Of a stretch of 64,000 bases of DNA, positions 4,523 to 49,963 are shown piece after piece. The stretch is from assembly GCA_965205525.1 (NCBI GenBank), contig OZ242171.1, forward strand, positions 1,869,098-1,933,097, read 5' to 3'. Source of the DNA: Gammaproteobacteria bacterium (lineage in GTDB: Bacteria > Pseudomonadota > Gammaproteobacteria > JABABF01). The notes beneath the pieces were generated by a model. The model made no database searches. It saw only the letters and a list, made by a program, of their open reading frames with translations, and had not been told where the DNA came from. The first letter of the stretch is position 1. Every line of letters starts with the position of its first letter. The translations under genes were made by a program, and so were the position numbers.

Positions 4523-4577
4523 TTACAATGAGGGGCTGCTGAAGCAAAATCACCGCCAGATACCGAGGGGGGTGCAA

Positions 4578-5999: not shown

Positions 6000-6038
6000 G
6001 CATTTTTCGCACTGTCCGCTGCATAAAAGTTTTGCGAA

Positions 6039-6971: not shown

Positions 6972-7131
6972 AAATTGGCTCACTGCAGTGGGGCACGCAG
7001 TCTACTGCTGACTTCTCTTTATCCTGTCATGCCGCAGTCTTGAATAATGGCCTTTTTAATGAGTTTCGTCCGCATTGACTAAAACAGCAGCAGATGGCGG
7101 ACTAACCAATGATTGGAGGCAGGCGACAGAT

Positions 7132-7890: not shown

Positions 7891-8002
7891 AACACACCTC
7901 TCTTAGAAAAAGAATTTCATGCCGGCACACAGTAGTCCCCTCCCACACCTGCAAGCTTAGCCGGTGGTGGACTGGTAAATGATTGGAATGCAGGCGACAA
8001 GT

Positions 8003-12805: not shown

Positions 12806-12896
12806 TGTGCTTCTTCTTCTGCCGCTGTCTCTTTGTGCTTCGGAACTGCCTTCACCGCTCTGCTTTGCGGGCAGTCGGCATCCCCTGCGACTTTCA

Positions 12897-13670
12897 TCAC
12901 CCTGCGGACCCGGGGCTGGAGTTCGCCCGCCCCAGCACCTCCCCCGCCAGCTCTTGATAAGCCTGTGCGCCCCGACACAGCTGGTCGTAGGCCAAGGCGG
13001 GCATGCCATGGCTCGGAGCCTCGGCAAGACGCACATTGCGAGGAATAATCGTATGGTACAGCCTGTCTCCAAAATGCACCCGCAGCTGCTCTGAAACCTC
13101 CTGGGCCAGACTGTTGCGGCTGTCGTACATGGTGCGCAAAACGCCGGCTATGTGCAGGGGAGGATGCCGCTCCTGCAGTCGCTCCACGGTCTGCACCAGG
13201 GCGGACAGGCCCTCCAAGGCATAGTACTCGCACTGCACCGGCACTATCAGACCGTCTGCGGCCATCATGGCGTTCACTGTCAAGGGATTCAGGGCGGGGG
13301 GGGAGTCGATAAGAATGTAATCGTAGTCGTTTCCCAGCGGCGCCAGCCTTTCCCGCAGACAGTACTCCTTCCCGGGAAGCTGCGCCTCCGCGGCCGTGAG
13401 ATCGCCGTCTGCCGGCAGCACATCGTAGCCCCCCGATTCACTTCTCTGCATCAGCGCTCCGGCTGGCATATCCTCCAGCAACAGGTGATACATGCTGTGC
13501 TCAAGAGAATTTTTTTCAATGCCGCTGCCTATGGTTGCATTCCCCTGAGGGTCCAGATCCACCAGCAGCACCCGGCGACGGGCAGCAGCCAGGCAGGCAG
13601 CAAGATTGATCGCAGTGGTGGTTTTCCCCACCCCTCCCTTCTGATTGGTAAGTGCAAAAATTCTTGCCAT
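12897..13670 (-). CDS. parA: chromosome partitioning ATPase ParA/Soj
   Basis: MARIFALTNQKGGVGKTTTAINLAA...VLLVDLDPQGNAT is the Walker A' of the ParA family. Start placed at the Met before IFAL. Confidence 0.9.
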   Translation of the reverse strand: MARIFALTNQKGGVGKTTTAINLAACLAAARRRVLLVDLDPQGNATIGSGIEKNSLEHSMYHLLLEDMPAGALMQRSESGGYDVLPADGDLTAAEAQLPGKEYCLRERLAPLGNDYDYILIDSPPALNPLTVNAMMAADGLIVPVQCEYYALEGLSALVQTVERLQERHPPLHIAGVLRTMYDSRNSLAQEVSEQLRVHFGDRLYHTIIPRNVRLAEAPSHGMPALAYDQLCRGAQAYQELAGEVLGRANSSPGSAG

Positions 13671-13678
13671 CTCTTCTC

Positions 13679-14311
13679 TCAGCCAGCCCAGCGGCATACC
13701 ACAAGGTGGCGCTCAGCATCCACCCCCGGCACCTGCAGCGGCAGGCAGTACTCTACGACAATTTCCGGCGGCAGCTCCCCCAGCTCTCTCTCGGGGTTGC
13801 GACCCCTGGGAAACAGCAGGCAAGTTCCGGCCCGACAAAGATGTGAGAACATCTGCAGCAGCAGGGCTGGCGGCTTTACCGCTCGGGCTGTAATAATATC
13901 CGGCAGCTGCGCCGGGTGATATCGCTCCACCTCTGCCTCCGCCACCTCCGCTCCCTCTATCTCCAGTTCCGCCTTTGCCTGGCGCAGAAATCGGGCCTGA
14001 TTTGCCCCCCGGTCCAGCAGCACAACCCGCCGCTCCGGGCAGGCGATGGCAATCGGCAGACCAGGCAGACCGGCACCGCTTCCCACATCCAGCAGGATTT
14101 CTCCCGCAGGCAAGTGGTGCACCAAGCTTAGGCTGTCCAGCAGCAGTTTTCGCACCATCTCTTCAGGTTCCCGGACCCCAGTAAGGGAGAAACGCCTGTT
14201 CCAGCGCTCCAAAAGCTGCACATAGGCCAGCAATCTTTCCAAGGCGGTCTCCGGCAGGTGAAGGTCCATTTCCTGCAAGCCTGCTTTCAGGATCTCAGCG
14301 GGGTTGTCCAC
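13679..14311 (-). CDS. rsmG: 16S rRNA (guanine527-N7)-methyltransferase RsmG (GidB)
   Basis: LLDVGSGAGLPGLPIAI SAM-binding motif and GidB-like length, located directly downstream of mnmG. Confidence 0.85.
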   Translation of the reverse strand: MDNPAEILKAGLQEMDLHLPETALERLLAYVQLLERWNRRFSLTGVREPEEMVRKLLLDSLSLVHHLPAGEILLDVGSGAGLPGLPIAIACPERRVVLLDRGANQARFLRQAKAELEIEGAEVAEAEVERYHPAQLPDIITARAVKPPALLLQMFSHLCRAGTCLLFPRGRNPERELGELPPEIVVEYCLPLQVPGVDAERHLVVCRWAG

Positions 14312-14458: not shown

Positions 14459-16351
14459 TCAGGCCTGGCGGCGGTCAGCGGCGAAGCCGCCGCGCTTTTT
14501 GAGATGAACAAGCAGCAGCGAGAGGGCGACAGGAGTGACCCCGGGAATACGGCCTGCCTGGCCCAAGGTGACCGGGCGGCCAGCATCCAGTTTCTGGCGG
14601 ATTTCGGTGGAAAGCCCGGTTACCTGGCCGTAATCCATGCTGTCGGGAAGGATCTCCTCCTCGTGCCTTCGCAGCCGCTCAATCTCTGCCTGCTGTCGGG
14701 CGGCATAGCCGGCATATTTGATCTCTGCCTCTATCGCGCGGGCTGCCTGGGCTTCCATTACGGCATCCGTGGATTCTGCCTGAAGGTGGCGATAGCTCAG
14801 TTCGGGGCGCCGCAGAAGGCTGGCCAGCTTCTGCTCACGGCAAAGAGGTTCTTTCAAGTACCGCTCAAGACCGGATGCCAGGGCTGTGCCGGGACGAATA
14901 GAGGTGTGCTCCAGCCGCTGAATCTCGCGCTCTATAAGCTCTTTCTTCTCGCAGAATTTCCGCCAGCGAGCCTCGCCGACCAGGCCGAGCTCCCGCCCTT
15001 TTTCTGTCAGCCGCAGATCCGCATTGTCCTCCCGCAGCAAAAGGCGGTACTCGGCCCGGCTGGTGAACATGCGATAGGGCTCCGGTGCACCCTGGGTGAT
15101 AAGGTCATCCGTCAGCACGCCCAAGTAGGCCTGGTCCCGGTACGGGTGCCAGGCAGGACTGCCCTGCACCAGCCGCGCCGCGTTGAGCCCGGCCAAAATT
15201 CCCTGGGCAGCCGCCTCCTCGTAGCCAGTGGTGCCATTGATCTGGCCAGCAAAGAAAAGCCCTCGCACAAAGCGGGTTTCCAAAGAAGGCCGGAGATCCC
15301 GGGGGTCAAAGTAGTCGTACTCTATGGCGTAGCCGGGCTGTGTGATGCGGGCGTTCTCAAAGCCAGCGATAGAGCGGACCATTGCCTCCTGCACGGCCAG
15401 AGGCAGGCTGGTGGAAATCCCGTTGGGATAAATCTCAGAGCTTGTCAGCCCCTCCGGCTCAACAAATATCTGGTGGGAATCCCGCTCGGCAAAGCGCACG
15501 ACCTTGTCCTCAATGGAGGGGCAGTATCTTGGGCCACGCCCCTCAATGGCTCCCGAATGCATGGGCGACTGGTCCAGAGCGCCGCGAATAATCTCGTGGG
15601 TCTTCTGGCTGGTGCGGGTGATAAAACAGCTCACCTGATGCGGATGCTCTTCCGGCAGACCCAGATAGGACATCACTGGGACGGGGATGTCTCCGGGCTG
15701 CTCCTCCATTTTGCCAAAGTCCACTGTGTTCCCATCCAGCCTAGGGGGAGTGCCTGTTTTCAAGCGACCGACCCGAAAGGGCATCTCTCTCAGCCGGGCG
15801 GCCAGCGCCAAGGAAGAAGCCTCCCCCGCCCGACCGCCGCTCTTGCTCCGCAGCCCAATATGAATGCGACCGCCCAGGAAAGTGCCTGCGGTCAGCACTA
15901 CCGCAGAGGCCGAAAAGTGCTCTCCCGCGTCGGTAATCACCCCCTGAACACTTTCCCCGGATACCCGCAAATCCTCTACCGAGCCGGCCAAGAGAGAAAG
16001 ATTGGGCTGAGAGTGCACCAAAGCCTGCACCGAGGAGCGATACAGGGAGCGATCTGTCTGGGCCCGGGTAGCCTGCACCGCGGCACCCCGGCTGGCATTC
16101 AGCACACGAAAATGAATTCCAGCACGGTCGGCAGCACGGGCCATGATGCCATCCAACGCATCCACCTCGCACACCAAATGGCTCTTACCGATACCCCCTA
16201 CCGCCGGATTGCAGGACATCTGTCCAATTGTCTCCAAGCGCTGGGTCAGCAGAAGTGTCTTACAGCCTACTCGCGCGGCGGCAGAAGCCGCTTCAACGCC
16301 AGCATGGCCGCCGCCGATGACAATCACATCAAAAGTGCTAAGAGACTTCAC
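14459..16351 (-). CDS. mnmG: tRNA uridine 5-carboxymethylaminomethyl modification enzyme MnmG (GidA)
   Basis: [19 protein letters not shown]-binding N-terminus, full GidA-like length and a conserved C-terminus. A GTG start at 16351 ([15 protein letters not shown]) gives 630 aa like E. coli MnmG. The ORF-track ATG at 16465 would add an atypical 38-aa Cys-rich extension. Confidence 0.88.
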
Positions 16352-20866: not shown

Positions 20867-21692
20867 GGTGTCGTTCTGCTAAAGCGGCTTTAGGGCAGCA
20901 GGCCATTGTAAGGCAGGATGGTGTAGGGGTCAAAAGGACGGGCGGCGGTAAAGCAGTGTTTTCCAATGCTGAAACGCTGTGGGCGAGCTTTGCCAGAAGG
21001 GGTGTGAGCGGTTTGTCTGCCGAGTTTTTTGCGGGGGGAAGGACGGGCGGCGGTGAAGCAGTGTTTTTCAATGCTGAAACGTTGGGGACGAGCTTTGCCA
21101 GAAGGGGTGTGAGCGATTTGTCTGCCGAGTTTTTTGCGGGGGGCTCGCCCCCCGTGGGTCCCCTGCCCTCGCCTGGCAGCACTTGCCAAGGGGGCGGCCC
21201 TCCCTGTGGTCTTCGACCACTGCTCTCCCTTGGCGGATCTTCCCAAATTCCGCTCTGACATCCCCTCCTGTGGAAAACCAAATCCGGCTATGAAGCTTTA
21301 ATTTCCTGTCTTAGAGAGGTGGAGCGCGATAGCCAAGATGCCGAATTTTGCTGTCTTTTGCACAACTTGTCCACACCTCATGATAAATTTTTTCCTTATG
21401 CTGCAAGGAGAAATGGACAATAGGCCCTATTTGCACAAATTTCACACATATATTTCAAACGCCTGTTAATAAATGGCCTTGCCTCCTTGCCTAGGGAGTA
21501 ATCCGGCACTAGGATTTTCTCTTGTTGAGGGGGCAAAAAAAATTCCTCTTGGCGCTGGTGAATTTTATCGTCATCTAAAGAGTACAAGGATACAGGGCAG
21601 CTCGTACGATGTTGCTAGGATCCGCTTCCCTTCTGGGTTGCGGGAAGCCCGGGAGTAGTGTTTTGGGCATCCGACAAAGAGGGGAATCGCCT
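20867..21692. promoter_or_regulatory. rpmH-dnaA intergenic region (dnaA/rpmH promoters; candidate oriC as in Pseudomonas-type gene order)
   Basis: 826 bp non-coding. DnaA-box-like TTGTCCACA (~21405) and TGTGGAAAA (~21263), an AT-richer block at 21410-21510, and the 105-bp tandem repeats. Confidence 0.4.
20936..21145. repeat. perfect-register tandem direct repeat, 2 x 105 bp (~93% identity), upstream of rpmH
   Basis: ggacgggcggcggtaaagcagtgttttccaatgctgaaacgctgtgggcgagctttgccagaaggggtgtgagcggtttgtctgccgagttttttgcgggggg repeats immediately with about 7 substitutions. Confidence 0.8.
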
Positions 21693-23288
21693 GTGAATCC
21701 AGAAATATGGCAAAGTTGCTTGCAGCATCTGAAAGGCAGCCTGAGTTCTTCTGAATTCAGTACTTGGATACATCCGCTGCTGGCTGAGACAGACCCATCG
21801 GGTCTGACTCTGTTCGCCCCCAACGCCATAATCCGGGACCGGGTCAGCAGCCATTATCACGCCTGCATAGAGGATGCCCTGCGCGCCTCTGGGGGCGACG
21901 GTTTCTTTATCCGGGTGGAGGTGGTGGGCGCGCCTGCTTTGGCGCCGCTGCCAGCCCGGTCGGCAGGGACTGCGGCTACAGGCATGAATGGCAGCTCCGC
22001 TGCTGTTTCGGAGGCTAAAGCCGCCCTCAAGGGAGTGAAAGCGAATGCTGTATCCGCTGAGGTACCTATTGGGAGAGACACCCCTCTCCGCATGAGCGGC
22101 GCATCCGCTGCAGTGCAGCGGAGCGGCACCGCCCCCCCTCTGGGGGCCGGGCGCACCGCTCCCGCCGGGATGAACGGCAGGCCGGCAAAGGCTCCGCTGA
22201 ACGGCTATGCCCCCGCTGCAAGAAGGGTGGGTGCAGCCTTGCCTCCTCGGCAGACGACCGAGAGGGCCTTAGCCCCCGAGTTCACATTTGAAAACTTTGT
22301 GCAGGGGCCTTCCAATCGCCAGGCATTTTCCTATGCGAAGCAGATTGCGAAAGCAGATTCGCGCATGAACAGCAGTCACAGCCCGCTGGTGATCTACGGC
22401 GGCGTCGGCCTCGGCAAGACACACCTGATGCATGCGGCGGGCAACGAGCTGCGCCGCAGCCAGCCGGACATGAATATCGTTTACTGCTGTGCGGAGGATT
22501 TTGTAAACAGCATGACGAATTCCCTGCGAATGAGCGGGATGCCCGAGTTCAAGCGTTACTATCGTTCGGCGCAGGTGCTGCTTATAGATGACATCCAGTT
22601 CTTTGCCGACAAGAAAACATCCCAGGAGGAGCTGCTTCATACCATTGATACACTGCAGCAGCGAGGCCAGAAGATCATCATCACCTGCGATCGGCAGCCG
22701 CAGGAAATGGAGGGCCTGCATGCGCGCCTGTGCTCCCGCTTCGGTCGCGGGCTGACCATCGTCATCGACCCGCCGGACCTTGAAACCCGCACTGCAATCC
22801 TGAAACACAAGGCCGCCGCCATGAAGCTGGAGCTGCCGGAGGACTGTGCGCTGTTCATCGCCCAGAAGCTGCGCTCCAATGTGCGCGAGCTGGAAGGCGC
22901 GCTGAATCGCGTTTCCGCAAGCGCAGGCTTTTATGAGCGCCCGATCAACTTGGGCCTTGTGCAGGAAGCGCTGGCAGACATGCTTGTCGCGCATAATCGC
23001 CAGGTGCGCATAAAGGACATCAAGATAAAAGTGGCGGAATATTTTAATATGCAGGTTTCTCTTCTCCATGCGCGCACCCGTGTTCGCAACGTAGTGCGTG
23101 CCCGCCAAGTGGCGATGGCCCTGGCCCGGGAGCTCACCAGTGAGAGTCTGCCGAGCATCGGTTATACCTTCGGCCGGCGCGACCACACGACGGTGATGCA
23201 TGCCTGCAAGAAGATCAAAGAACTGCGCTGCAAGAACCAGGAAATTGAGCGGGCCTACAGCACTCTGCACCGTCAGTTGACGACCTGA
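21693..23288 (+). CDS. dnaA: chromosomal replication initiator DnaA
   Basis: GTG at 21693 is preceded by AGAGGGG. N-terminus NPEIWQSCLQHLKGSLSSSEFSTWIHPL; AAA+ region GGVGLGKTHLMHAAGNEL...LLIDDIQFF; DNA-binding domain ...TSESLPSIGYTFGRRDHTTVMHACKKI. A long Ala/Gly/Pro-rich domain II linker is present. Confidence 0.9.
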   Translation: MNPEIWQSCLQHLKGSLSSSEFSTWIHPLLAETDPSGLTLFAPNAIIRDRVSSHYHACIEDALRASGGDGFFIRVEVVGAPALAPLPARSAGTAATGMNGSSAAVSEAKAALKGVKANAVSAEVPIGRDTPLRMSGASAAVQRSGTAPPLGAGRTAPAGMNGRPAKAPLNGYAPAARRVGAALPPRQTTERALAPEFTFENFVQGPSNRQAFSYAKQIAKADSRMNSSHSPLVIYGGVGLGKTHLMHAAGNELRRSQPDMNIVYCCAEDFVNSMTNSLRMSGMPEFKRYYRSAQVLLIDDIQFFADKKTSQEELLHTIDTLQQRGQKIIITCDRQPQEMEGLHARLCSRFGRGLTIVIDPPDLETRTAILKHKAAAMKLELPEDCALFIAQKLRSNVRELEGALNRVSASAGFYERPINLGLVQEALADMLVAHNRQVRIKDIKIKVAEYFNMQVSLLHARTRVRNVVRARQVAMALARELTSESLPSIGYTFGRRDHTTVMHACKKIKELRCKNQEIERAYSTLHRQLTT

Positions 23289-23844
23289 GTGTCTGCTCTC
23301 ATCAGCGGAAGCAGTGTGCCTGCTGTTTAAATTTAATGGATACTTTGCCTGTCCCTTGCATAAGCTTTGCATGCCGAATCATCGCCGCTGCAGGGCTGCG
23401 CAGCAGGTTTCGCGACACAATTTTTTTGCGCGGTTTTTTCCTGTCGGTGAGCTTTTTGTGAAAGATTTTTTCCGACTGAATCTTTCTGCACATGCTGCGG
23501 GTGCCGCCGCGCTAAAGACGGGACATCTGCGACACGGAGCTGCCCTTGGTCCGCTTCGCTTCCCGCCGCTCTCTCCGGTGCCAGAGGAAGCGCAATGCGG
23601 CGGCCAGAGGGCTCCGTGCCGATGAACCGCATAGGATCAATCCTGCATCAGGGGTGCAATGTGAGGGCTGAAGGCACTACAATACTGTCATCCGCTCCGC
23701 AGCTTGTCAGCAGAGTGCTATCGCTCTGGCGGAGACTCCCCTCCCGGAGCTTTTGCGGCGTAGCCCAACGCCTTGGGAGAGGCCTTTGAGAAGCCCCCTC
23801 GGTGCTGGGAAAGGAAGCAACCGATATATGAGAGACCTGTCGAA

Positions 23845-24984
23845 ATGAAACTGAAAATTACTCGCGAAACTCTGCTGAAACCATTGCAGACCACCGCCAA
23901 CATTGCCGCCAATCGTGTCAATGACAGCGGCCAGATTCGGGGCGGAGTGCTGCTGCGCCTGAAGGACGAGCATTTGCAGCTGACCGGCACCGGCAATCGC
24001 CTTCAGCTCCTTGGCGTGTCGGACCTCCCTGGAGTGAAGGGCAGCAGCGGAGAGATCGCCATGAGCGGCACGAAACTGCTAGATATATGCAATAAGCTGC
24101 CTAATGACAGCGAGTTAGCGATAGAAGCCGACAAAGAATGGGTTGTTCTCAAGTCCGGCCGGAGCCGTTTCAAGCTGGCTGTCTTCCAAGCTGCGGAATA
24201 TCCGGTCATCGCCGAGATGGAGGACGACTTGGAAACCTCCGTCAAACTGTCGGCAAAGGACCTTATTCGCCTGATTCGCAGAACGGTTTATGCCATGGCC
24301 ACGGAGCAGGATGTGCGGGATTACCTGCGCGGCGTCTTGCTGGAGGCCCGAGATGGCCAGCTGCGCTCCGTTGCCACAGATGGCCACAGGCTGGCCATGT
24401 GCTCCATGAAGGCCAGTGTTTCGGTGAAGGAGCCCCAGCAGGCCATAGTGCCCCGGGCCAGCGCTCAGGAGATGCTGTCCCGCCTGGACACCTTGGATGA
24501 CAAAGATGTGGAGGTGGAGCTGACCTTGGGGCAGAAATATATCCGCCTGGTCACCCCATCGCATCGCATTGTGTCTATGCTCGTAGATGCGAAATATCCC
24601 GACTACGAGCGTGTCATACCCCGGGACGGCAACAACGAAGCCGTCTTCTCCAGAAAGAATTTTGAGCAGATGCTGAGCCGAATCAATACTGTCCTTGTGG
24701 AAGAAGATGTTCCGGTGGTGCGCCTGGCCTTCTCTGAAAATATGCTGCGCATGCTGGCGCGCAACTATCAGAATGAGGAGGCGGAAGAGGATATGGAGGT
24801 GGAATATAAGGGGGAGTCGCTGGAAATAGGTTTTAATATCCGCTATATGCACGACCTTATGCATGCCTTTGGGCATGAGGAAGCAGTGCGGATCACCATG
24901 ACTGATGCCAACAGCAGCGCCCTGATTCAGAGTGCAGACAAGAATCCGGACACGCTGCATGTGATTATGCCGATGCGCTTTTGA
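23845..24984 (+). CDS. dnaN: DNA polymerase III beta sliding clamp
   Basis: MKLKITRETLLKPLQTTANI...; three-domain clamp length (379 aa); C-terminal MPMRF. Confidence 0.85.
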   Translation: MKLKITRETLLKPLQTTANIAANRVNDSGQIRGGVLLRLKDEHLQLTGTGNRLQLLGVSDLPGVKGSSGEIAMSGTKLLDICNKLPNDSELAIEADKEWVVLKSGRSRFKLAVFQAAEYPVIAEMEDDLETSVKLSAKDLIRLIRRTVYAMATEQDVRDYLRGVLLEARDGQLRSVATDGHRLAMCSMKASVSVKEPQQAIVPRASAQEMLSRLDTLDDKDVEVELTLGQKYIRLVTPSHRIVSMLVDAKYPDYERVIPRDGNNEAVFSRKNFEQMLSRINTVLVEEDVPVVRLAFSENMLRMLARNYQNEEAEEDMEVEYKGESLEIGFNIRYMHDLMHAFGHEEAVRITMTDANSSALIQSADKNPDTLHVIMPMRF

Positions 24985-25028
24985 ATGAGGTCTCGGAAAA
25001 CTCCCTTGGCAATTTCTGCACATCGGCG

Positions 25029-28687
<3,659 letters not shown>

Positions 28688-29684: not shown

Positions 29685-30185
29685 GTTGACCGCGCTCCGG
29701 ATCTCACACCGACCGATGGTCGTGACCGCCAGGAAGCATCCGCTGCCATTCAAAGATGCGGGGCAGCGGCTGAACATAGCCGGTCACATCGGCAATGGCC
29801 AGACGCTTCGGGTCCAGCAGCTTTGCTTTGAGAAGAATATTCTGGCCTGACAGCTCTCCCAGGCGATAGACATAGGTGCCGCTGGCGGTCGGTGTCATAT
29901 TCGGCTATGTGTATATGCAGCTTTTCGGCATCTCAGGTGTGCCCCAGATTGCGGCCGCTCAAGGGGTTCAGGCGCGTCTACTGGGGCGGGGGCCAATGTG
30001 CTGGGAAGTATCGCAGTGAATTGAATAAAGCGAAAAGACTGCCCCATGCTGGTCTCCTGACTGTCGTCGCCGCTATAAGCGTGGCGCGGGGCCCAGCCGT
30101 CAGCAGAGGCAATATAATGCATTTAAGGGTGTGTCTGCAGTATCTGTCGGCATCTGCCCGTGCTCTTTGTCACCGGCGAGTGGGG

Positions 30186-32096
30186 ATGACTCTGAATTTG
30201 CTTCTTCGGCACAAAACTTTAGGCCTGCTTTTCCCAAGGGGATTTGCGGCCATTGCTTTCTGCTGTCTATGGCTGGCATTTGCGCCCGCCTCTGCGCAAT
30301 GGATATCCACCCCTTTGCAGGACGGGCCCGCACCTGCGGACACGAAGTCCGTCCCCGAAGACAGGAAGCCCGCCTCTTCAGCTGCGAAACCTGCCTCGTC
30401 TTCTGCCCCCGCTTTCCCGGCCCCCTCACGCACAGTGCGCACATCGCCGGTTTCGGGCCGTACCCCTCCGGTTTCTGCACGCGTGCCCCCGGTTTCAGTC
30501 CGCACTCCTCCGGTCTCAGCTCGCACTCCTCCAGTTTCCGCCCGCACACCGCCGGTTTCGGGCCGAATTCCGCCGGTCAATGTGCGCACCCCCCCGGTTT
30601 CAGTCCGTACCCCTCCGGTTTCTGCACGTGTGCCTCCAGTCTCGGCTCGCACTCCTCCAGTTTCTGCACGTGTGCCTCCGGTCTCAGCTCGCACGCCTCC
30701 AGTTTCCGTCGCCACACCGCCGGTTTCGGGCCGAATTCCGCCGGTCAATGTGCGTACGCCCCCCGTTTCAGTCCGTACCCATCCGGTTCCTGCACGTAAG
30801 AAGCGCGTTCAAGGCAGAAGGCAACAATTTTACCGAAATACACCGCCATTCTCTGCAAAGATGCCTCCCATTTCCCTGCCCTTGGTCCCCCCTGTTTCCG
30901 GCAGGCCGGACCCGCTCTCTGTGCGCTTGGGCACTCCCCCCATGCAGAAGATATCTCGGGCCTCTGCTGACATGCAGCGGAGCTTTTCCCCGAGACCCGC
31001 TCCCCTTATGCAGCTAGCCTTTGCCTACCCCCAGAAGCCTGTGAGGGCATCCGCATATCCGGCCCTGGCACAATCATCCCCCGCACCTGCACCTGTGTCC
31101 GCCCCTGCGCCACCGAAATCAGCTCCTGGCTGTGAGGGCGGATCTTCTGCTCTGGCGGAGATGATCCCTGTAAAAGGCGGCTCTTTCAAAATGGGAGACG
31201 AGCATTTTTATCCAGAGGAAGGGCCGTCGCGCCGCGCTCATGTAAAGCCTTTTCTAATTCGGCGATTTGAAGTCACCAACGCCGAGTTTGCCGAGTTTGC
31301 CGATGCCGCCGGCTATCGCACATTGGCCGAGCGCGGCCTGGCTGCAAAGGACTACCCCCAAGTGCCGCCGGAAATGCGAGTCCCTGGATCAGCGGTTTTC
31401 ATACCCCCCGCCGCACCCGAGACTGCCAGCCCGTCCCGCTGGTGGCGTTTCGTGCCCGGGGCGAATTGGCGACATCCTCAGGGGCCGGATAGCAGCGTTC
31501 AGGACAAGCTTTACCATCCGGTCGTTCATATCGCCTATGAGGATGCCCTCGCCTATGCCCGCTGGAAGAAACAGCGACTGCCCACGGAGGCGGAGTGGGA
31601 ATATGCTGCTCGCAATGCCAGTGCCCAAACCCCGCCGCCAAAAGCATCCGAGCAGAGGAAAGCGCCCCGGGATGCCAATGTCTGGCAGGGGCACTTCCCC
31701 GACAGGAACACCTTGGAGGATGGCTATGCCGGCACTGCCCCGGTCGGCTGTTTTCCGCCGAAGGGTGCCGGACTGCACGACATGATCGGCAATGTCTGGG
31801 AATGGACATCAAGCTGGTACTACCCGCACCACAGCAAAGAGCACAGTCGGGCCCAGCCTTCGCCCGGCTTTGACCCGAACCAGGCGGGTGCGCCGGTTCG
31901 GGTGGTGAAGGGCGGCTCCTACCTGTGTGCGGAGAACTACTGCATGCGTTTTAGACCGTCGGCGCGGATTGCCCAGGAGGTTGGGCTCGGCACTTCGCAT
32001 ATCGGCTTTAGGACGGTCGCCGACATTCCGGCAGAGCATGCGTCTGGCACCGGGAGCTCTGACAGCAAACCGAAGGCTCCCTCACGCAAAAAATGA
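30186..32096 (+). CDS. secreted formylglycine-generating-enzyme (FGE/SUMF1)-domain protein with N-terminal Pro-rich heptad-repeat region
   Basis: Signal peptide MTLNLLLRHKTLGLLFPRGFAAIAFCCLWLAFAPASAQ; about 18 RTPPVSA heptads; C-terminal FGE-sulfatase domain (GGSFKMGDE, RLPTEAEWEYAARN, GNVWEWTSSWY, RVVKGGSY). The ORF-track start at 29892 adds 98 aa of non-signal sequence and is unlikely. Confidence 0.7.
   Translation: MTLNLLLRHKTLGLLFPRGFAAIAFCCLWLAFAPASAQWISTPLQDGPAPADTKSVPEDRKPASSAAKPASSSAPAFPAPSRTVRTSPVSGRTPPVSARVPPVSVRTPPVSARTPPVSARTPPVSGRIPPVNVRTPPVSVRTPPVSARVPPVSARTPPVSARVPPVSARTPPVSVATPPVSGRIPPVNVRTPPVSVRTHPVPARKKRVQGRRQQFYRNTPPFSAKMPPISLPLVPPVSGRPDPLSVRLGTPPMQKISRASADMQRSFSPRPAPLMQLAFAYPQKPVRASAYPALAQSSPAPAPVSAPAPPKSAPGCEGGSSALAEMIPVKGGSFKMGDEHFYPEEGPSRRAHVKPFLIRRFEVTNAEFAEFADAAGYRTLAERGLAAKDYPQVPPEMRVPGSAVFIPPAAPETASPSRWWRFVPGANWRHPQGPDSSVQDKLYHPVVHIAYEDALAYARWKKQRLPTEAEWEYAARNASAQTPPPKASEQRKAPRDANVWQGHFPDRNTLEDGYAGTAPVGCFPPKGAGLHDMIGNVWEWTSSWYYPHHSKEHSRAQPSPGFDPNQAGAPVRVVKGGSYLCAENYCMRFRPSARIAQEVGLGTSHIGFRTVADIPAEHASGTGSSDSKPKAPSRKK
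30429..30797 (+). repeat. 21-bp (7-aa) tandem repeat array, ~18 copies, consensus RTPPVSA; contains a higher-order duplication
   Basis: ccggtttc[ag]g[ct]ccg[tc]acccctccggtttctgcacg... repeated. The segment SGRIPPVNVRTPPVSVRT occurs twice about 190 bp apart. Confidence 0.8.
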
Positions 32097-32348: not shown

Positions 32349-33524
32349 ATGAAACGCAGTCAGAGTGATACGGGCAGTTATAAGACTGTCGCGACTGCAG
32401 GCGAGCGGTTTCAAGCGTTCGTGCCAGCCCCCTTGCCGCCAAACCCTGCTTTAGTTTTGGATGGCCCTATTGTGCAGTTGCTTGAGGGTGCAGCACATGC
32501 CCTCGGACGCCTCAACAATGCCCGGGATAATCTGCCGTACCCGTATTTCCTGTATAGCTATGTCCGGAAGGAAGCAGTGCTCTCTTCACGGGTAGAGGGG
32601 ACCGAGTCGACACTGTCGGACCTCCTGCTCCATGACCTGAATGGGCCTTTCGGAGTCCCGTTTGATGATGTGAAAGAGACCTCGCTGTATGCTGAAGCGC
32701 TAGAGTATGGCCTGCGCCGTCTGCAAGACATTCCGCCGTCAAACCGATTGATCCGCGAGGTTCATGAAAAGCTGCTTTCTCATGGGCGCGGGAACGATCA
32801 AAATCCTGGTGAGTTTCGTCGCTCGCAGAATTGGATTGGCGGCGGCCAGCCTAGCAATGCTGATTTTGTGCCGCCGCCCCACATTGATGTGCCCGACTGC
32901 ATGGCGGCGCTTGAGAGATTTATTCATGCTACGGATGACGGGCTGCCCATCTTGATTCGGGTGGGACTTGCACACGCGCAGTTTGAAACCATTCATCCCT
33001 TCCTTGACGGAAACGGACGAGTGGGAAGGCTGCTTATCTCCTTGCTGCTGTCTCATTTCAAGATGTTGCAGCAACCGCTTCTGTACCTGAGTCTGTATTT
33101 CAAGGAGAACCGCGATAGTTACTATGATCTGCTCAACCGCATACGCCGCGACGGTGACTGGGAAGAGTGGCTTAAGTTCTTCCTTAGAGGAGTGCAGGAT
33201 ACAGCGGATAGTGCGGTCTCAGATGTGCAAGAAATCATCCGTATATTTTCGGATGACCAATCTAAAATTAAAAAAGAGGCTGGTCGTCGCACTGGAACAG
33301 CATTGCAGGTGCATACGGCATTTCAAAAGAGGCCGATTCTATCCCGCGGCGAAGCCAGCCGTAAGACGAAGCTTTCTTATCCCGCGGTCGCATCAGCAAT
33401 AAAGCTTCTTGTTGAGAAAGGAATTGTGCACGAGCTTCCTATGACGGCGCCGCCAAAGCGCAACATGCCGCAGTTCTTCGTTTACACAAAATACTTTTCC
33501 ATCCTTAACAAAGGCGATGAATAG
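32349..33524 (+). CDS. Fic family protein (probable AMPylator), class II with N-terminal inhibitory motif
   Basis: Fic core motif HPFLDGNGRVGRLL; an inhibitory-helix-like (S/T)xxxE(G/N) motif SRVEG upstream; C-terminal winged-helix-like tail. Preceded by a 250-bp AT-rich spacer. Confidence 0.8.
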   Translation: MKRSQSDTGSYKTVATAGERFQAFVPAPLPPNPALVLDGPIVQLLEGAAHALGRLNNARDNLPYPYFLYSYVRKEAVLSSRVEGTESTLSDLLLHDLNGPFGVPFDDVKETSLYAEALEYGLRRLQDIPPSNRLIREVHEKLLSHGRGNDQNPGEFRRSQNWIGGGQPSNADFVPPPHIDVPDCMAALERFIHATDDGLPILIRVGLAHAQFETIHPFLDGNGRVGRLLISLLLSHFKMLQQPLLYLSLYFKENRDSYYDLLNRIRRDGDWEEWLKFFLRGVQDTADSAVSDVQEIIRIFSDDQSKIKKEAGRRTGTALQVHTAFQKRPILSRGEASRKTKLSYPAVASAIKLLVEKGIVHELPMTAPPKRNMPQFFVYTKYFSILNKGDE

Positions 33525-42902: not shown

Positions 42903-45900
42903 TTGTATTTGAAAATCCGCTTACTACTTAATACAACTGCCAGAAAGCCCGATGCGGGCAATCAGAGGCATGGAATAAGGGGATATCTTGCAGGAATCCT
43001 GCTGTTTTCACTTTCTCTGGCGGTCGTCCCTGTCGGTGCGCAGGAGCCTGTGCCGGCGCTGAGTTTGGAAGTGACCGGGCTGCCAGCGGGCAGCGGAGCC
43101 ATCCCCGAGCGGCTTCAGCTTTTCCTTGACTGTACCGAGGGGGAAGAAAACGATAATTGTTTCCAAGGACTTAAAGGACCCTCTACAGCCTTTGGCGGCA
43201 TTGCCCTCAGCCCGGACGGCAGGCTGCTGGCAGTTCTGGGGGCGGGCGATAATGCTCTCAGTCTGTGGCAGGTGGATACTGCCTCTGACACTATCAGCCG
43301 GAGTGCTCTTTATTGCAGTTCTGTGGGTTCTTGCCCAGGAGGCACGGATGTAGAGTATGGCCTTGAAGCGCCAAACGATCTCACTTTCAGCCATGATGGC
43401 GAGCTGCTGATGGTTGCTAATCTTGAATCAAGATCTTTAAGCGTCTGGCAGGTGAATGCAGAAGCTGGAACGCTCACTCGGAGCGCAGTCTACTGGGATA
43501 GCGGCACCACAGGCAGAGGCAACTGTCAAGACGTTTTCAGGGACATAGACCAGTGCTCTGCTAGGGAGAACAGTGACGGTGCAAGAATAGGATTAGTTGA
43601 AAACGGCGGGTATCTCGCCGACGGGCTGAACGGAGCTTTTGATGTCGCGGCCAGCCCGACTCATGATCTGCTGTTCATTACAGGCAGGAGTGATAGAGCT
43701 CTCAGTGTGTGGGCAATAGATGCGCAGGCCGGCACTCTCACCCAGATTGCACTTTACAAGGGCGGCAGTTCAGGGGCAACGGCTTGCTCAGGCACAGGCT
43801 TCAGCGGGGCAAACTGTGAGGACGAGCTGAGCGGATTGCAGGGAGTGCGCGGTCTCACAGTGAGTCCGGACGGCAGGTTGGTATTGGTTGCGGGCTCTGG
43901 CGAAAATGCTCTGAGCGTCTGGCGGGTGAACCCGGAAGCCAGCGGTACTGCAGTCTTGACGCAAACCGATATTTATGAAGATGGGGCAAATGGCATTGAC
44001 GGTCTTGGCGGTGTGCAGGATATTGCAGTGAGCCCGAATGGTCGCCTCGCATTTGCCACAGGTACTGACGAAAATGCACTCAGCGTATGGCGGGTGAATG
44101 CGGCGGCTGGCACCCTCACCCAGACCGCCCTTTATTGGGATATTAATGCTGAGAACTGCACAGATGCCGAGGAAGCTCAGGGAAACTGCTTTGATGGTCT
44201 CACATCGGTTCGCAATCTCACCCTCAGCCCGGACGGCAGACTGCTGTTTGTGACCGCGGTAACCGATGATTCCCTCAGTGCCTTTGAGGTGGATGATTCC
44301 AGCAGCACCCTTCGGCAGACTGCTCTCAGCCGGATAAGGTCCAATGTGCTTGTCGGGTTAAACACTGCAGCCGATGTCATTTTCGGGCCCCTCAGCGCGC
44401 CCGATGCCGCTGTCGGATTGGGCAACCCGGCCGGTGTTGTCGTCAGCGCCGCCGGCACAGTATTTCTTAAGGCGGGTGCGGGCACTGCCGTAGGCGCTCT
44501 TTCCACTTGGCGGGTGACACCTCTTGTGCCGACATACAGCTCAGTTGTGCTGACCGTGGAGACGGATAGGGTGCTGTCTACGCCGACAACAGCAGCGGTG
44601 AAATTGATATCACGGCGGGACATGCGAGAGTTGCTGCTGCCAGTGACTCTGTCCAGCGCGTCGGTTGAGGCGACGATTCCGGCAGGCATGCTGACCCCGG
44701 GCCTGTGGGATATTACTGTGCAAACGGAGCCGGGTGCGGCGGACGTGACAGGGGCACAGGGACTCTTGAGGGTGGCGCCGCTGTCTTTGCGTCTGCAGAG
44801 AGAGCAGCAGGGAGACCAGGTGAATCTTCGTGCCACAACTACAGAAGGCCCGCCGATTGCGGCGATTACAGTTACAGTGCAGGTGACGGATACCGACGTA
44901 AGTACAGCGGTCACTTTTACGCTCACTCCCGAGAATTTCCAAGATGTTCTCGTTCCGTTTCCGGCGGGTGCCCTGCCCTCGGGACGTTACAGTGTCTCTT
45001 TAACGAGCTCGCCGACCGGCACTATAAACACGGTTTCAACGAGAGCTGCGTTGATGGTGCGTGATTACACTCTGAGCTTGGAGGCACCGGCCGAGACTCT
45101 GACAGCTAACGAATTCTCGGTCACGGTGAGCGCAGCGCCCTCCCTGGAGACGACACTTAGGGTTACAGTAACACTGCGAAATGACGGAGTGGCGCTACAG
45201 ACGCGCCTGGCAATCTTAACGGCGGCCACTCCCTCACAGGCTGTGGCTTTCACGGCACCCGATGCTTCCTCCCCCATAACCGTGATGCTGGATACGGAGA
45301 CTATGGCCGAGGATGAGTCTGTGACAGTGGTGGAGGCAAGTATCGCGAATGTGCTTATTCTGCCGTTGCCGGCCGTTCGCCTTGTGTTCAGTGAGAACAC
45401 AGCGCGTATCGGCATGGATGTCAGTGTGAATGGTGTGCGTATTATGGTGGACAGCATGCCATTGACGGCTGCGATTGTGACAGTCAAGGCGACACTGCGG
45501 AATAGCCGCCAGACGAGCATAACGGCGTCGGTTGAAGTGGGGCCGGATAATTTTGAGAACCTCCGCGCTATGTTTTCGGTGGTCGGCGTGCCGGCAGGGC
45601 TCTGGGACTTGTCGGCGAGCTCTTCACCCCCCAATGCTCTGGATACCACTGGCTTCACCGGCACATTGCGACTAAACGCATTACCGTTCTTGGTGTTGCC
45701 AGAAGATAATATGCCGGCGGGGCGCAGCCTGAAGGTTTCATTGCGGACCGTTCTTCTTGTGACAGAGGAATTCAGGCTCAGCGCGATAAGGCAGGGAAGC
45801 AGCCCAGAAGTGCGGATAGAAGCAGATACGCCCATCACCTTCACAAATACAGACGCCGGTACGGCGACGTTTGCAGCGGGCTTAGATTCAGGAGTGTGGA

Positions 45901-48900
45901 GATTTCGGCTGTCGCCAAGACCGGGTGAGAACTTCGTGGAAATTTTCTCTTCAGGCTTTCCCATGCTGACGGTATCGCAGCGGCTTCTGACGCTGACACC
46001 GACCCAAGAGGGCGCCCAAGTGCAGGTTCACTTAGCGGCTATAGGAGGAGCGCCGGCGACGCCGGTGACAGCGATGGTGGTGGCAGAGGGTGGCGCAACG
46101 AGCAGGACACTGGAAATCACTCTTGGGCCAGATGCTGCTGAGAGTGTCTCTGCATTCCCGCCAGGCGTTCTGCCGCCAGGTGTCTATGATTTTTCAGTGG
46201 TTTCTTTATTGCCGCCCGACATCGCAATGATTGATAATGAAACAGGCACAACTACGCTGACAGTGGTATCGGGACTGAGTTTCATGCTGCCGACGGGCTC
46301 AACGCTGCCGGCGGGAAGCACAGTGATGGTTACGGTAATACGCAACAGCTTGGGAAGTGCGCTTCTGGATATTGATGCATATACTGGGGATGGAGACATT
46401 GAAGACAGCACGATAGTGTCAGCCAACGAAGTCGTTTCTTTTCCTGAGGATATGCTTACTGGGATGGCGGTATTTTCTGCGGGGAGTTTGCTTCCCAACA
46501 TATGGAGATTTAGGAGTAGTAATGATCTGAATATTGGGAGCAATGATAGGGTCACTGCATTGACCATAGAAGATCGGGTCCAGGTAACCCTGACCCCCGA
46601 TGCATCTGCGGTGTCGGCAGGGGGGGCGGTCCGCCTGGTTGCGACCGCGGTGCCTTCGCTGGCTGAAAGCCTCGGCAGGGTGCTCATTACGGTTACGGCG
46701 ACCGGAAGCAGTGGCCTCGCCTCTGGGCAATCAGAGGAGCAGATGGTCACTCTGTCATCGGAGCTGAATGCTGAACCAGTGATATTCCCGCGCCTGGCTT
46801 CGGGCGTCTGGATGATTAACGGGACGGACGCAAGAAACGCTGTGACCATTCCTGAAACAGAAGTCACCGTAGTGCTGTCAGCGGTAATTTTTGAGTCGAC
46901 AGCGTCACTGACCGATATAGATGGCGCCATGCGGCGGGCGGTGGCAGTGGGCAGCGATGTGCGCCTTGGACTGACGGCAGACCCTGCACCGGGCACGTCG
47001 GTGACGGTCACGGTGAGTGCTGTAGATGGCGATACGGGGGAGACGACAACGACAGAGGTCATGCTCTCGTCGAGCGCACCTGCGGCTGAAGCGCTATTCA
47101 GCGGGGCGAATGCCCTGGGTGTGGGCACATGGGGGTTTACCGCTGTGGCGAACCCGACTGATACAGTGGTATTTCAAGCAGCACCGATGGTGGTTGTGCT
47201 GGTGCCGACAATAATTCTCACATCGGACAGCGATGGAGAGACTGTGCGCGTAACCCAGCCGGTGCGCTTGACGGTAGCCTCAATGCCGTTTGCGCCAGGC
47301 ATGCCTGTAGAGATCAGTGTCCTTGCATCTCTTGGAGATAGAGAAAGCACGCAAATGGTCACCCTGTCGCCAGAAATGAGCTCGGCGTCGGTCGAATTTA
47401 CGCCGGACGTGCTGGGCCGGGTGGTGGGTGATTGGACCTTTACAGCAACAGCAGAGCCGGAGGGATTGGCAGATGTATCCGGGGCGGCGGTGACCGTGCC
47501 GGTAGGGCTGCCTGCAGTGCTTCTGACGCCGGTGGGAACAAGCTTAGACACAGGCAGCAGCGTGGTGCTGACAGTGAGCACAGATGCTCCGATAGAGGGC
47601 GAAGTCAGCATCACGGTGACAGGTATGTCAGAGGCAGGTCCGTTGCCACCCATGGCGGTTGTGCTGAGCCCGGGTGATACTGAAGAGACGGTAGATTTTG
47701 GTGTACTGCCCGAAGGCGAATACACCTTTACGGCAACATCCACGCCGACAGGCACTGTAGAGACCGTTTTTTCGACAGTGACGGTGATCATCGCCCCGGG
47801 CGGGAACCTATTGGACAGCCTTTCTCTGACACCGAGACAAATCGTGCAGGGCACTGTCGCCATCCTGAGGGTGGAGAAGGTCAGGTCGGCAGACAGTGCG
47901 CAGACTGTGACCGTTCTAAGAGATGGGGTGCCAGAGGGGGATCTGGTTATTCCTGCTGATTCACCCTCTGCCGAGGCAATGGTGCGGGGAGACGGTATCG
48001 GCGCATACACCTACTCTTTGGGAGACCCGAACAGCGAGCTGGCCAACGAAGAAGAGGAGCGTTTCCGACAGCCGCTGCGCGTGGTGGCCGATGTGCAGCT
48101 TAGCTTCGGGTTAAGTTTTGGCTATGTTGGTCAGTCTGTGGGCATCCGTGCAGCCTTGGTGGATGCAGACGGAAGCGCCGAAAGCCTGGACACGAGCGTG
48201 ACGCTGACCCTGCGGGCTGAGGAAGAAACGAGCGGGATGGTTTTGGATGACATCTCGCTGACAATCCCTGCAACAACGATATCCGGCAGCGCCGTATTCC
48301 TGCCGTCCATAGCCACTACTTGGACAATAACCGTAAGCGAGATAAGTCCGCCGGATGCCCTGCTGGTGCCGGCGGTCAGTATTGCACCGGCAGCAATAGC
48401 TATCAGGGAGCCGCTGCAGCTGGTGCTTATGCCGACTATTTCTTCGGTGCTTATCGGCAGTCCGATTGAACTGATGATAACTGCTGGCAACGCAGCAGAT
48501 GTGGAGGTGACGGCACTGACGGTAAGAGCCGTGCGGGGAGAAAATGGGCGATCAGACAGCCTGAGTCTGCCCACAGAAAATGAGGTGACAGTACAGCTAG
48601 ACAGCCTGAGTCTGCCCACAAATGTGGTGTTCAGGGCGGGCGATTTGGGGATCGGTGAATGGCAGTTTGAATTAATTGCAGAGCCCGCCTTTGCAATATC
48701 AGTTTCAGCGCCGGCGACAGTGACCCTGCTGGATGCAAACCTGGACCTCAGCTTGCCGGACGGGGACGGGGTAGGTGCGGATGATTTGATATTGCTATTG
48801 CGCTACCAGATATTGTGTGTCAGGCGGGTGCGGCCGGAATTTGACTGTGCAGACGGCCGGAATCTTACGCGCAACTTGAGCGCCGCCGACTATGATCTGC

Positions 48901-49102: not shown

Positions 49103-49963
49103 GTGAGCAGGCAAACCCCTGGGCTTCTTCTCGGCGGACTGCAATTCTGCGAATGCCCCCGCTGGCGCGACGGGCGCCTGTGGTTTTCTGACATGACCGC
49201 CGGGCGCATACTGGCGACGGACATGGCGGGGCATGCCGAGGAAATCGCCCGCTGGGAAGGCAGACCCGCCGGTCTCGGCTGGCTGCCGGACGGACGGCTT
49301 CTGGCGGTATCCATGCTGGACTGCCGGCTGATGTGCCTGGACAAAGAGAACTGGCGCGAGCTCGCTGACCTCAGTTCCTGGTGCGGCGGTCACGCCAATG
49401 ATATGGTGGTGGACAGCGAGGGACGCGCCTATGTGGGCAATATCGGCTTTGACCTTGAAGCCGAACCCTTTGAGCCCCGGCCCACAGTGCTCCTGTGTAT
49501 TGCGCCGGATGGACAGGTGCAGGTGGCGGCGGAGGAGCTCATTGCTCCCAATGGCATGGCCCTCTCTCCCTCCGGGAAGCAGCTGATACTGGCTGAATCC
49601 GGAGCGTATCGCCTGCTGTCCTACGACATTGCCGCCGATGGCAGTCTCAGCAATCGGCGGGTCTTCGCCGAACTGCCGGAGGGTGCTGCCCCGGATGGCA
49701 TCTGCCTGGATGCGGAAGGAGCGGTATGGGCCGCCAGTCCCACCTCGGGGGAGTTCCTGCGCCTGGCGGAAGGGGGCGATGTGCTGCAGCGTATTTCCTG
49801 CCCCGGCCGTGCACCGGTGGCGGTTGCTCTGGGCGGTGAGCAGGGACGCACTCTGTTCTGCCTCAGTGCTCCCCGCATGAGCATGAGGGAATCCGCCATG
49901 CTCAGCGATGCGCGCATTGAAACCGTGCAGGTAGAATCTCCAGGAGCAGGCCTTCCTTGCTAG
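49103..49963 (+). CDS. SMP-30/gluconolactonase/LRE-like (SGL) family protein
   Basis: CECPRWRDGRLWFSDM...LPDGRLL...DSEGRAYVGN...PNGMALSPSGKQLILAES...PDGICLDAEGAVW is the typical SGL six-blade propeller pattern. Starts 12 bp after the giant protein stop. Confidence 0.7.
   Translation: MSRQTPGLLLGGLQFCECPRWRDGRLWFSDMTAGRILATDMAGHAEEIARWEGRPAGLGWLPDGRLLAVSMLDCRLMCLDKENWRELADLSSWCGGHANDMVVDSEGRAYVGNIGFDLEAEPFEPRPTVLLCIAPDGQVQVAAEELIAPNGMALSPSGKQLILAESGAYRLLSYDIAADGSLSNRRVFAELPEGAAPDGICLDAEGAVWAASPTSGEFLRLAEGGDVLQRISCPGRAPVAVALGGEQGRTLFCLSAPRMSMRESAMLSDARIETVQVESPGAGLPC

Follow-up and report, generated by a model that had tools for sequence, protein, structure and literature searches.

A lineage-restricted, selectively constrained polycationic heptad stalk on a probably exported formylglycine-generating enzyme from a deep-branching gammaproteobacterium

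We analysed a 64,000-nucleotide stretch of DNA from Gammaproteobacteria bacterium (assembly GCA_965205525.1, contig OZ242171.1, positions 1,869,098 to 1,933,097; hereafter the window), in which one gene, at 30186..32096 on the forward strand, encodes a formylglycine-generating enzyme (FGE) of the SUMF1 type. The enzyme is probably active and, judging from its sequence features, exported, and between the predicted signal peptide and the catalytic domain lies an extension of 283 residues whose core is an array of 17 Pro- and Arg-containing heptads. The catalytic enzyme itself is already known. What is new is the lineage-restricted, selectively maintained, polycationic heptad stalk that it carries. 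Taken as a whole, the explanation that we prefer, namely a competent exported FGE with a functional polycationic stalk, seems to us reasonably probable.

The coding sequence is complete (636 aa plus stop), and the open reading frame (ORF) and its translation give, in order, a signal peptide, a polycationic Pro-rich extension, an FGE domain and a short basic tail, all of whose coordinates below are on the forward strand. The extent of the gene and its FGE-fold motifs had been given in an earlier sequence-only reading of this DNA, which also placed a signal peptide and a lengthy run of Pro-rich heptads ahead of the fold, and our analysis agrees on these points. We take the ATG at 30186 as the start because the orthologous protein of a sister species, whose GyrB is 77% identical to the window GyrB, aligns from residue 1-3 (MTLNL, or V-TLNL where a GTG start is read as V) while the in-frame sequence upstream of the start is unrelated between the two species. 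The extension at aa 38-320 (283 aa) has a net charge of +31, a pI of 12 and 23% Pro. It opens with a Pro/Ala/Ser-rich pre-repeat segment at aa 38-84 (30297..30437), which is delimited by composition and by alignment with the sister species, and in which the mature N-terminus QWISTPLQD is conserved (QWI.TPL.D is common to both species). Beyond the repeats it closes with a Pro/Ala/Gln-rich linker at aa 246-320 (30921..31145), likewise placed by alignment, that ends in a conserved Cys (C316) just ahead of the domain. The Ser/Pro/Lys-rich C-terminal tail at aa 613-636 (32022..32093) was defined by aligning the window and sister proteins; R634, K635 and K636 are invariant between the two species, and the remaining tail is 30% identical. 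This terminal -RKK may be a retention or binding motif, and basic ends occur in only some of the homologues of about 350 aa. Promoter and terminator scans around the gene returned sites no more numerous than in shuffled sequence.

We are close to certain that the protein is an FGE with an intact active site. The FGE-sulfatase (SUMF1-type) family PF03781 matches aa 324-611 (31155..32018, E 1.8e-73) at 247.8 bits, compared with a gathering cutoff of 23.3, and covers profile positions 3-254 of 255. The motifs GGSFKMGDE, RLPTEAEWEYAAR and GNVWEWT were located at aa 331-339, 464-476 and 535-541, respectively. Searching the Protein Data Bank (PDB) with phmmer returned FGE structures from Thermomonospora curvata (5nxl/6s07, 1e-66), human (1y1e, also 2aii, 1e-65) and Streptomyces coelicolor (2q17, 4e-57). 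The active-site segment S578-Y-L-C581-A-E-N-Y585-C586-M-R588 (31917..31949), which includes the Cu(I)-binding Cys pair, was identified by alignment to the T. curvata enzyme (tcFGE), where GGSYLCAENYCMRFR is matched with human GGSYMCHRSYCYRYR and T. curvata GGSFLCHESYCNRYR. In the pairwise alignment, S578, C581, Y585, C586 and R588 correspond to tcFGE Ser266, Cys269, Tyr273, Cys274 and Arg276, W538 corresponds to Trp228, and W419/W420 correspond to Trp108/109; C581 and C586 also correspond to human Cys336 and Cys341. Five of these residues (S578, C581, C586, R588 and W538) are invariant in an alignment of 38 sequences. The Cu(I) ligands, O2-pocket residues and substrate-contact residues of FGE have been described previously (PMC6676471, PMC5324649).

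It is scarcely credible that the domain is instead a non-catalytic member of this fold, such as SUMF2 (pFGE), PvdO, or a structural lipoprotein resembling GldJ, GldK or PorK. These families share the fold and do give secondary matches. However, the sequence-only reading had named loss of the catalytic cysteines as the sign of a SUMF2- or PvdO-like protein, and both the Cys pair and the second-shell residues are in place. True FGEs score about 225-229 bits in the PDB search, whereas SUMF2 scores 149, PorK and PvdO score 63-65 and EgtB scores at most 57. Every NCBIfam match falls far under its equivalog cutoff (score/cutoff: EgtB 106/360, GldK 95.4/350, SenA 89/420, PvdO 66/500, OvoA 54/400, GldJ 41.5/458). 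We therefore rejected assignment to the GldJ/GldK/PorK lipoproteins of the type IX secretion system, since the scores are under the cutoffs and the protein is without a lipobox. An EgtB/OvoA/SenA-type synthase was also rejected, as the match is confined to the FGE-like part and stays under equivalog cutoffs that include the N-terminal DinB-like domain.

The heptad array consists of 17 in-register units of the form R-[TV]-P-P-V-S-[AVG] at aa 85-203 (119 aa; 30438..30794), as defined by Tandem Repeats Finder (TRF) and a unit table. It has a net charge of +16 and 28% Pro; Arg recurs once per 7 residues, and acidic residues are absent. On the 7-aa/21-bp periodicity, TRF gives scores of 121-258 with 67-70% matches. 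Mean pairwise identity among the 17 units is 67% for DNA and 74% for peptide, and just two pairs of units are identical. The array had been described as 18 copies of RTPPVSA encoded by near-perfect 21-bp repeats; we instead count 17 in-register and three degenerate units, exact RTPPVSA occurs five times, and the repeats are far from perfect. A higher-order duplication, also part of that description, is real: identity at a lag of eight units (168 bp) is 81.5%, compared with 64-70% at other lags, and TRF reports an additional 105-bp period with 77% matches. Of 934 differences between units, 604 (65%) fall at codon position 3 of this frame, and the codon differences comprise 419 synonymous and 247 non-synonymous changes.

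The array is followed at aa 204-245 (30795..30920) by a basic break, RKKRVQGRRQQFYR, and three decayed heptads (NTPPFSA, KMPPISL and LVPPVSG), which were recognized from sequence and alignment and which pair with EIPPVSA, QPPPISL and PMVAPVS of the sister species. By inspection, the heptad is free of the eukaryote-type ligand motifs for SH3 (PxxP), WW (PPxY) and EVH1 (FPPPP) domains. Nor does the array resemble contingency-type hypervariable repeats, its units being 67% identical here and 66% identical in the sister species, and all in frame. No other PPVS arrays were found elsewhere in the window or in the sister loci.

The orthologue of the sister species carries the evidence that the heptads are under selection. 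The species is present in the ENA long-read assemblies ERZ25068742, ERZ25068743 and ERZ25068762 and on a scaffold of JGI 3300000051 'Botbay15'. Nine sister sequences were available: six contigs from ENA, the JGI scaffold and another two proteins belonging to the cluster. Their proteins have the same layout, with heptads that read G-R-V-P-P-V-S or V-A-T-P-P-V-S, and the arrays of the two species align position by position. The window protein has 35 additional residues, the length of five units, and two of these five have degenerated into the basic break. By the Nei-Gojobori method, dN/dS between the window gene and one sister sequence (L082) is 0.175 for the heptads and 0.168 for the FGE domain, as opposed to 0.37 for the post-repeat linker and 0.34 for the signal peptide. 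Pooled over the sister strains, which are about 94-97% identical in DNA, pN/pS is 0.09 for the heptads (219 synonymous and 40 non-synonymous differences), 0.12 for the FGE domain (360 and 142) and 0.41 for the linker (140 and 145). The heptad peptide is thus constrained like the catalytic domain, whereas the adjacent low-complexity linker is about 3- to 4-fold less constrained. Because the array is shared with the sister species, shows low dN/dS and has diverged mostly at codon position 3, we consider it ancient and under purifying selection, and we hold it very likely that the heptads are both old and selectively constrained.

One could propose instead that the array is a recently expanded, length-variable and slippage-prone spacer of which at most the length or composition matters. 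Unit turnover does exist, in that one sister sequence has 13 units rather than 14, another (P0132) has its unit types in a different order with the unit number unchanged, the window protein exceeds its orthologue by five unit lengths, and the sister pre-repeat segment contains a second motif of 7 aa, DAKPAP[TA], once or twice. The 8-unit block duplication is also visible. Against this, the units are only 67% identical in DNA with mostly synonymous differences (the corresponding value among sister units is 66%), the array is older than the split of species with 77% GyrB identity, heptad pN/pS (0.09) is close to that of the catalytic domain (0.12) and about 4-fold under that of the linker (0.41), and copy number is nearly fixed among the nine sister sequences. 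Because heptad pN/pS and dN/dS match the low values of the FGE domain, a neutral or recently expanded slippage product is disfavoured, and we judge this explanation very unlikely. The earlier proposal of recent expansion is accordingly contradicted by the codon-position-3 divergence and by the array in a second species, and the proposal of length variability survives in a minimal form, with 14 units in eight sister sequences and 13 in one. Collapse of repeats during assembly, raised as a possible artefact, does not account for the array either, as its units are diverged enough to be unique and the same array is present in nine independent sister sequences.

The same sequences bear on a more drastic possibility, which is that the N-terminal 325 residues are not translated and that a start at M326 or M336 yields a cytoplasmic FGE. 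Database gene models lend themselves to this idea, since seven of 13 members of the protein cluster have annotated lengths of 298 or 308 aa, and antisense ORFs of 205-324 aa have been called over the array. However, the long frame is open in 10 of 10 sequences over about 960 nt despite 40-50% amino-acid divergence, and this divergence tracks its codon positions, dN/dS staying well under 1. Both the signal peptide and the mature N-terminus have been kept between the species, and the closest homologues, too, are exported proteins. Since the Pfam domain begins at aa 324, a start at M336 would also cost it its first strand. We find an internal start highly improbable. The antisense calls in the sister sequences lie on the reverse strand at L082:9055-9801, L084:2004-2954, L085:2186-2803 and L086:2025-2999. 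In the window, a spurious antisense ORF of 192 aa with ETGGVRA repeats runs across the GC-rich heptad array at 30170-30748 on the reverse strand, and represents an annotation pitfall.

The candidate Sec-type signal peptide, read from the sequence, comprises aa 1-37 (30186..30296; MTLNLLLRHKTLGLLFPRGFAAIAFCCLWLAFAPASA, followed by QW). It has a basic n-region, a hydrophobic core of 14-15 residues (FAAIAFCCLWLAFA), Pro at -4 and a cleavage site of the form A-S-A/Q, and aa 19-33 constitute the sole strongly hydrophobic 15-mer of the protein. The pattern A-x-A/QWI.TPL.D is kept in the sister species. These features make Sec export with cleavage after Ala37 likely. The fold had been described as normally cytoplasmic or periplasmic and globular; export is not unusual here, because the closest homologues, of about 350 aa, also begin with signal peptides. 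The suggestion that the enzyme is tethered or displayed on the surface finds no sequence support. There is no lipobox (IAFC is present with Phe at -1), an RR motif is seen in one sister strain only, the protein has no second hydrophobic segment, and no Pfam family besides PF03781 could serve as a sorting domain. Among the anchors looked for in the protein (lipobox, transmembrane helix, C-terminal sorting domain and beta-barrel) none was seen, and the only hydrophobic segment is the signal core, which leads into A-S-A/Q.

The stalk sets this protein apart from other FGEs. In 67 FGE loci taken from other species, the N-terminal extension has a median length of 34 aa, compared with 283 here, and none of the 67 has a Pro-rich repeat. 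One cluster among the best 120 database homologues shares the architecture, and all others are 349-397 aa long. A scan of GTDB representative genomes gave only FGE-domain relatives at no more than 55% identity, none of them with a stalk, and a word-indexed search with the stalk alone had no matches. A scan of JGI metagenomes with N-terminal patterns yielded no confirmed relative of the stalk; the sister scaffold was reached via the protein cluster. An exhaustive HMMER search with the stalk returned 612 matches, many of which resemble eukaryotic SEA-domain mucins with TTPPVNA-type units. We rejected these as homologues, as those inspected are unrelated low-complexity proteins with heptad periodicity.

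In the mechanism that we favour, the FGE protein would leave the cytoplasm through the Sec pathway and lose its signal peptide by cleavage after Ala37, giving a soluble periplasmic enzyme. The C-terminal domain would then, in an O2- and Cu(I)-dependent reaction, oxidize the Cys of C-x-P-x-R in unfolded sulfatase-type clients to formylglycine. The lineage-specific stalk of 283 aa between signal peptide and enzyme would be intrinsically disordered, with an ancient 17-unit array at its core in which Arg1, Pro3, Pro4, Val5 and Ser6 appear to be maintained by selection. It might serve as an extended polycationic module that holds or positions the soluble enzyme on anionic envelope material, or as a spacer of defined length; on this view it would be no neutral product of slippage, nor would it tether the enzyme covalently. 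We put forward a polyanion-binding or positioning role only tentatively. If the 119-residue array adopts a conformation like polyproline II (about 0.31 nm per residue), we estimate that it would span about 37 nm.

Several observations weigh against this explanation and should temper it. No homology supports a role for the stalk, which is without true relatives. No sulfatase (PF00884) or other C-x-P-x-R client was found among the window ORFs of at least 180 aa, which were the subject of our domain scans and which represent 64 kb of a genome of about 2 Mb. Cleavage of the signal peptide is read from sequence, and the segment could be an uncleaved signal anchor. Misalignment or gene conversion can distort dN/dS inside repeats, although the comparison within the sister species, where unit number is mostly equal, is less exposed to either effect. 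Finally, an AlphaFold model of the full protein places aa 33-319 at pLDDT below 50 with no secondary structure, and this apparent disorder is weak evidence because the whole model is poor (mean pLDDT 49.7), including aa 487-596 within the FGE domain, which are also of low confidence.

The constraint on the peptide also raises the question of whether the heptads are modified. They might form a mucin-like O-glycosylation module in which Ser, and also Thr, would be glycosylated in the periplasm by a general oligosaccharyltransferase of the PglL type to produce a stiff, protease-resistant stalk. Ser6 is nearly invariant, lies within P-P-V-S-A and is followed by more Pro, and purifying selection acts on the peptide sequence and not on composition alone. 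Known PglL substrates are modified at Ser in low-complexity Pro/Ala-rich segments, as in the AASAP repeats of AniA, with W-P-Xn-S-Xm-P as the optimum (PMC4850263). The best HMMER matches to the stalk, moreover, are mucin-like heptad-repeat proteins (TTPPVNA and similar). Yet these matches reflect shared periodicity and not homology, the spacing departs from the tested optimum, with the next Pro at +4 rather than +2 and Arg at +2, and no Wzy_C/PglL-type O-oligosaccharyltransferase was detected among the scanned window ORFs. We regard O-glycosylation as rather unlikely. In a broader formulation, the array would be a sequence-specific module, either O-glycosylated or binding polyanions or sulfated glycans, that localizes the FGE to a site in the envelope or host matrix and is not a spacer. 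This we find unlikely. If it were true of a small-genome, probably host-associated gammaproteobacterium, it would constitute a new spatial organization of bacterial formylglycine generation.

A further alternative is that the protein is released and that the Arg-containing stalk binds polyanions of a host or matrix, such as sulfated polysaccharides, making it a host-interaction factor whose FGE domain acts on, or is docked at, extracellular targets. The stalk has a net charge of +31, with one Arg per 7 residues in an array that contains no acidic residue. Fic genes neighbour the FGE gene in both species, and ankyrin-repeat genes are present in the sister loci. The genome is small, at about 2 Mb (the contig with identical GyrB is 1,998,239 bp and the sister contig 2,099,823 bp). 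The window also includes two Sulfotransfer_2-like genes, and a metagenome from Botany Bay (JGI 3300000051 'Botbay15') contains the sister species. On the other hand, no secretion signal or sorting domain besides the Sec signal was detected in the protein. Since the clients of FGE are unfolded and its copper must be in the reduced Cu(I) state, extracellular catalysis is unlikely. A host-associated lifestyle is a reasonable inference; BBAY15, the Botany Bay metagenome, is filed under coastal water (PMC3619665). We consider release and host interaction quite unlikely, and retain the soluble, exported enzyme with a functional stalk as the preferred reading.

It seems appropriate to ask what would follow from each outcome. 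A stalk that is constrained like an active site suggests that positioning or modification of the enzyme matters in this lineage. Glycosylation of the stalk, or its binding to polyanions of the envelope or host, would make it a compact and testable targeting module. Should it act as a linker and nothing more, then the protein is an ordinary FGE, and the lesson would mainly be one of caution in annotation, given the orthologues truncated in most sister assemblies and the spurious antisense ORF. FGE itself is well understood and finds wide use in bioconjugation. To our knowledge, the manner in which bacterial FGEs meet unfolded, Sec-exported clients in the periplasm has been studied much less.

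The gene resides in the neighbourhood of the replication origin, where the window contains gidB, mnmE, yidC, dnaA, dnaN, recF and gyrB, a divergent PlsC-type acyltransferase gene and then the FGE gene, with parA and parB at the far upstream end. The origin-region genes (parAB, gidB, mnmE, yidC, dnaA, dnaN, recF and gyrB) lie at 21609-28687 on the forward strand and 11912-13697 on the reverse strand. Past the FGE gene, genes for a Fic protein, a major facilitator superfamily (MFS) transporter and other products come first; those for pyruvate kinase, a beta-propeller protein of 2062 aa and ATP synthase follow. Because GyrB is only about 58% identical to that of named gammaproteobacteria (Pseudomonadales, Cellvibrionales and similar), and because the contig with identical GyrB is 1,998,239 bp, we assign the DNA to a gammaproteobacterial lineage that branches deeply and has a genome of about 2 Mb. 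Domain II of its DnaA is long (about 130 aa) and Ala/Pro-rich. The 2062-aa ORF (42903-49091, forward strand) has an N-terminal signal-like segment and weak beta-propeller matches (lactonase, WD40 and SGL), and is followed at 49103-49963 by an SMP-30/gluconolactonase-like gene. Scans of the window for Rfam families and tRNAs gave no hits, and no rRNA was found in it.

Directly downstream of the FGE gene, a Fic-family gene (32349..33524, forward strand; Fic_N and Fic domains, motif HPFLDGNGRVGR) encodes a protein 63% identical to the Fic protein encoded directly upstream of FGE in the sister loci. Adjacency is therefore kept with the order swapped, FGE-Fic in the window and Fic-FGE in the sister species, and further Fic genes, as well as the ankyrin-repeat genes, are found nearby in the sister loci. 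Any functional link between Fic and FGE would be putative, as Fic genes are numerous in these loci. The two Sulfotransfer_2-like genes are adjacent paralogues on the reverse strand at 7132-7890 (20.7 bits, below the Pfam cutoff of 22) and 8003-8767 (30.2 bits), 22 kb from the FGE gene in a stretch of lower GC content (about 51%, compared with about 58-60%) that may be an acquired island. A 310-aa ORF without annotation (6039-6971) adjoins the pair. The sequence-only reading took sulfotransferase genes as a hint of sulfation biology; with one gene of the distant pair below cutoff and no sulfatase among the scanned ORFs, this context is at best a weak hint.

The sister loci have a more eventful history downstream of the intact FGE gene. 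Partial, decayed copies of its 3' end, with 91-95% DNA identity, lie a few kb downstream in several sister strains (L001:12749-13391 and 15081-15492; L082:15290-15455; L083:15073-15177), and the cargo between the gene and its relics varies by strain (DUF8426, RVT_1 and PhoD; AAA_13 and GmrSD; ankyrin and Fic). The pattern suggests that islands have integrated one after another into the 3' end of this gene. No such relics are present in the window. The RVT_1 gene and the partial FGE copies downstream might together suggest a diversity-generating retroelement, in which a reverse transcriptase acts on a variable protein of this fold; we rejected this because the differences between the gene and its copies are not adenine-specific and FGE pN/pS is low. 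In the older JGI scaffold (L087, Botbay15_c001550), an ankyrin-repeat segment separates the halves of the FGE gene at 4465-8312 alongside three 20-N gaps, and this insertion is probably a scaffolding artefact. Its heptad array is intact, with 14 units.

Among known systems, the families that share the PF03781-type fold, namely SUMF2/pFGE (1Y4J), PvdO (5HHA), GldK/PorK (9MZU) and EgtB/OvoA/SenA, are structural relatives of the domain. In these families the catalytic Cys pair is missing or other domains are required, whereas the window protein has the pair, and SUMF2, PvdO, PorK and EgtB score 149, 63, 65 and at most 57 bits compared with 229. The AASAP repeats of Neisseria AniA and mucin-like heptads have in common with the stalk a placement of Ser or Thr in Pro/Ala-rich tandem repeats. 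Unlike typical mucin domains, however, the stalk is strongly basic, and its matches stem from periodicity and composition rather than common descent; no glycosyltransferase or oligosaccharyltransferase that would correspond to these systems was seen among the scanned window ORFs. A functional analogy may be found in the (Glu-Pro)n(Lys-Pro)n region of TonB and the linker of LpoB, which are Pro-rich or disordered charged spacers that place a globular domain at a distance in the envelope. The stalk may work like these spacers. TonB and LpoB are anchored by a transmembrane helix or lipid, whereas the window protein has a predicted cleavable signal and no anchor motif, and there is no sequence relationship, the stalk being built of a 7-residue unit with an invariant PPVS.

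The nearest counterparts remain the FGEs themselves. The window protein is like the aerobic Cu/O2-dependent enzymes of human (SUMF1, 1Y1E), T. curvata (5NXL/6S07) and S. coelicolor (2Q17) in its full-length catalytic domain and its conserved Cys pair and pocket residues, but neither the solved FGEs nor the best 120 homologues, apart from those of the one sister species, have the 283-aa heptad stalk. The exported proteobacterial FGEs of about 350 aa, exemplified by proteins from Paraburkholderia (P0011) and Pseudolabrys (P0117), are 45-56% identical over the domain, begin with a signal peptide and, as in the window protein, have a conserved Cys about 10-15 residues ahead of the domain. The difference lies in what separates the two parts: about 30 residues connect the signal peptide to the domain in these enzymes, and 283 residues do so in the protein described here.

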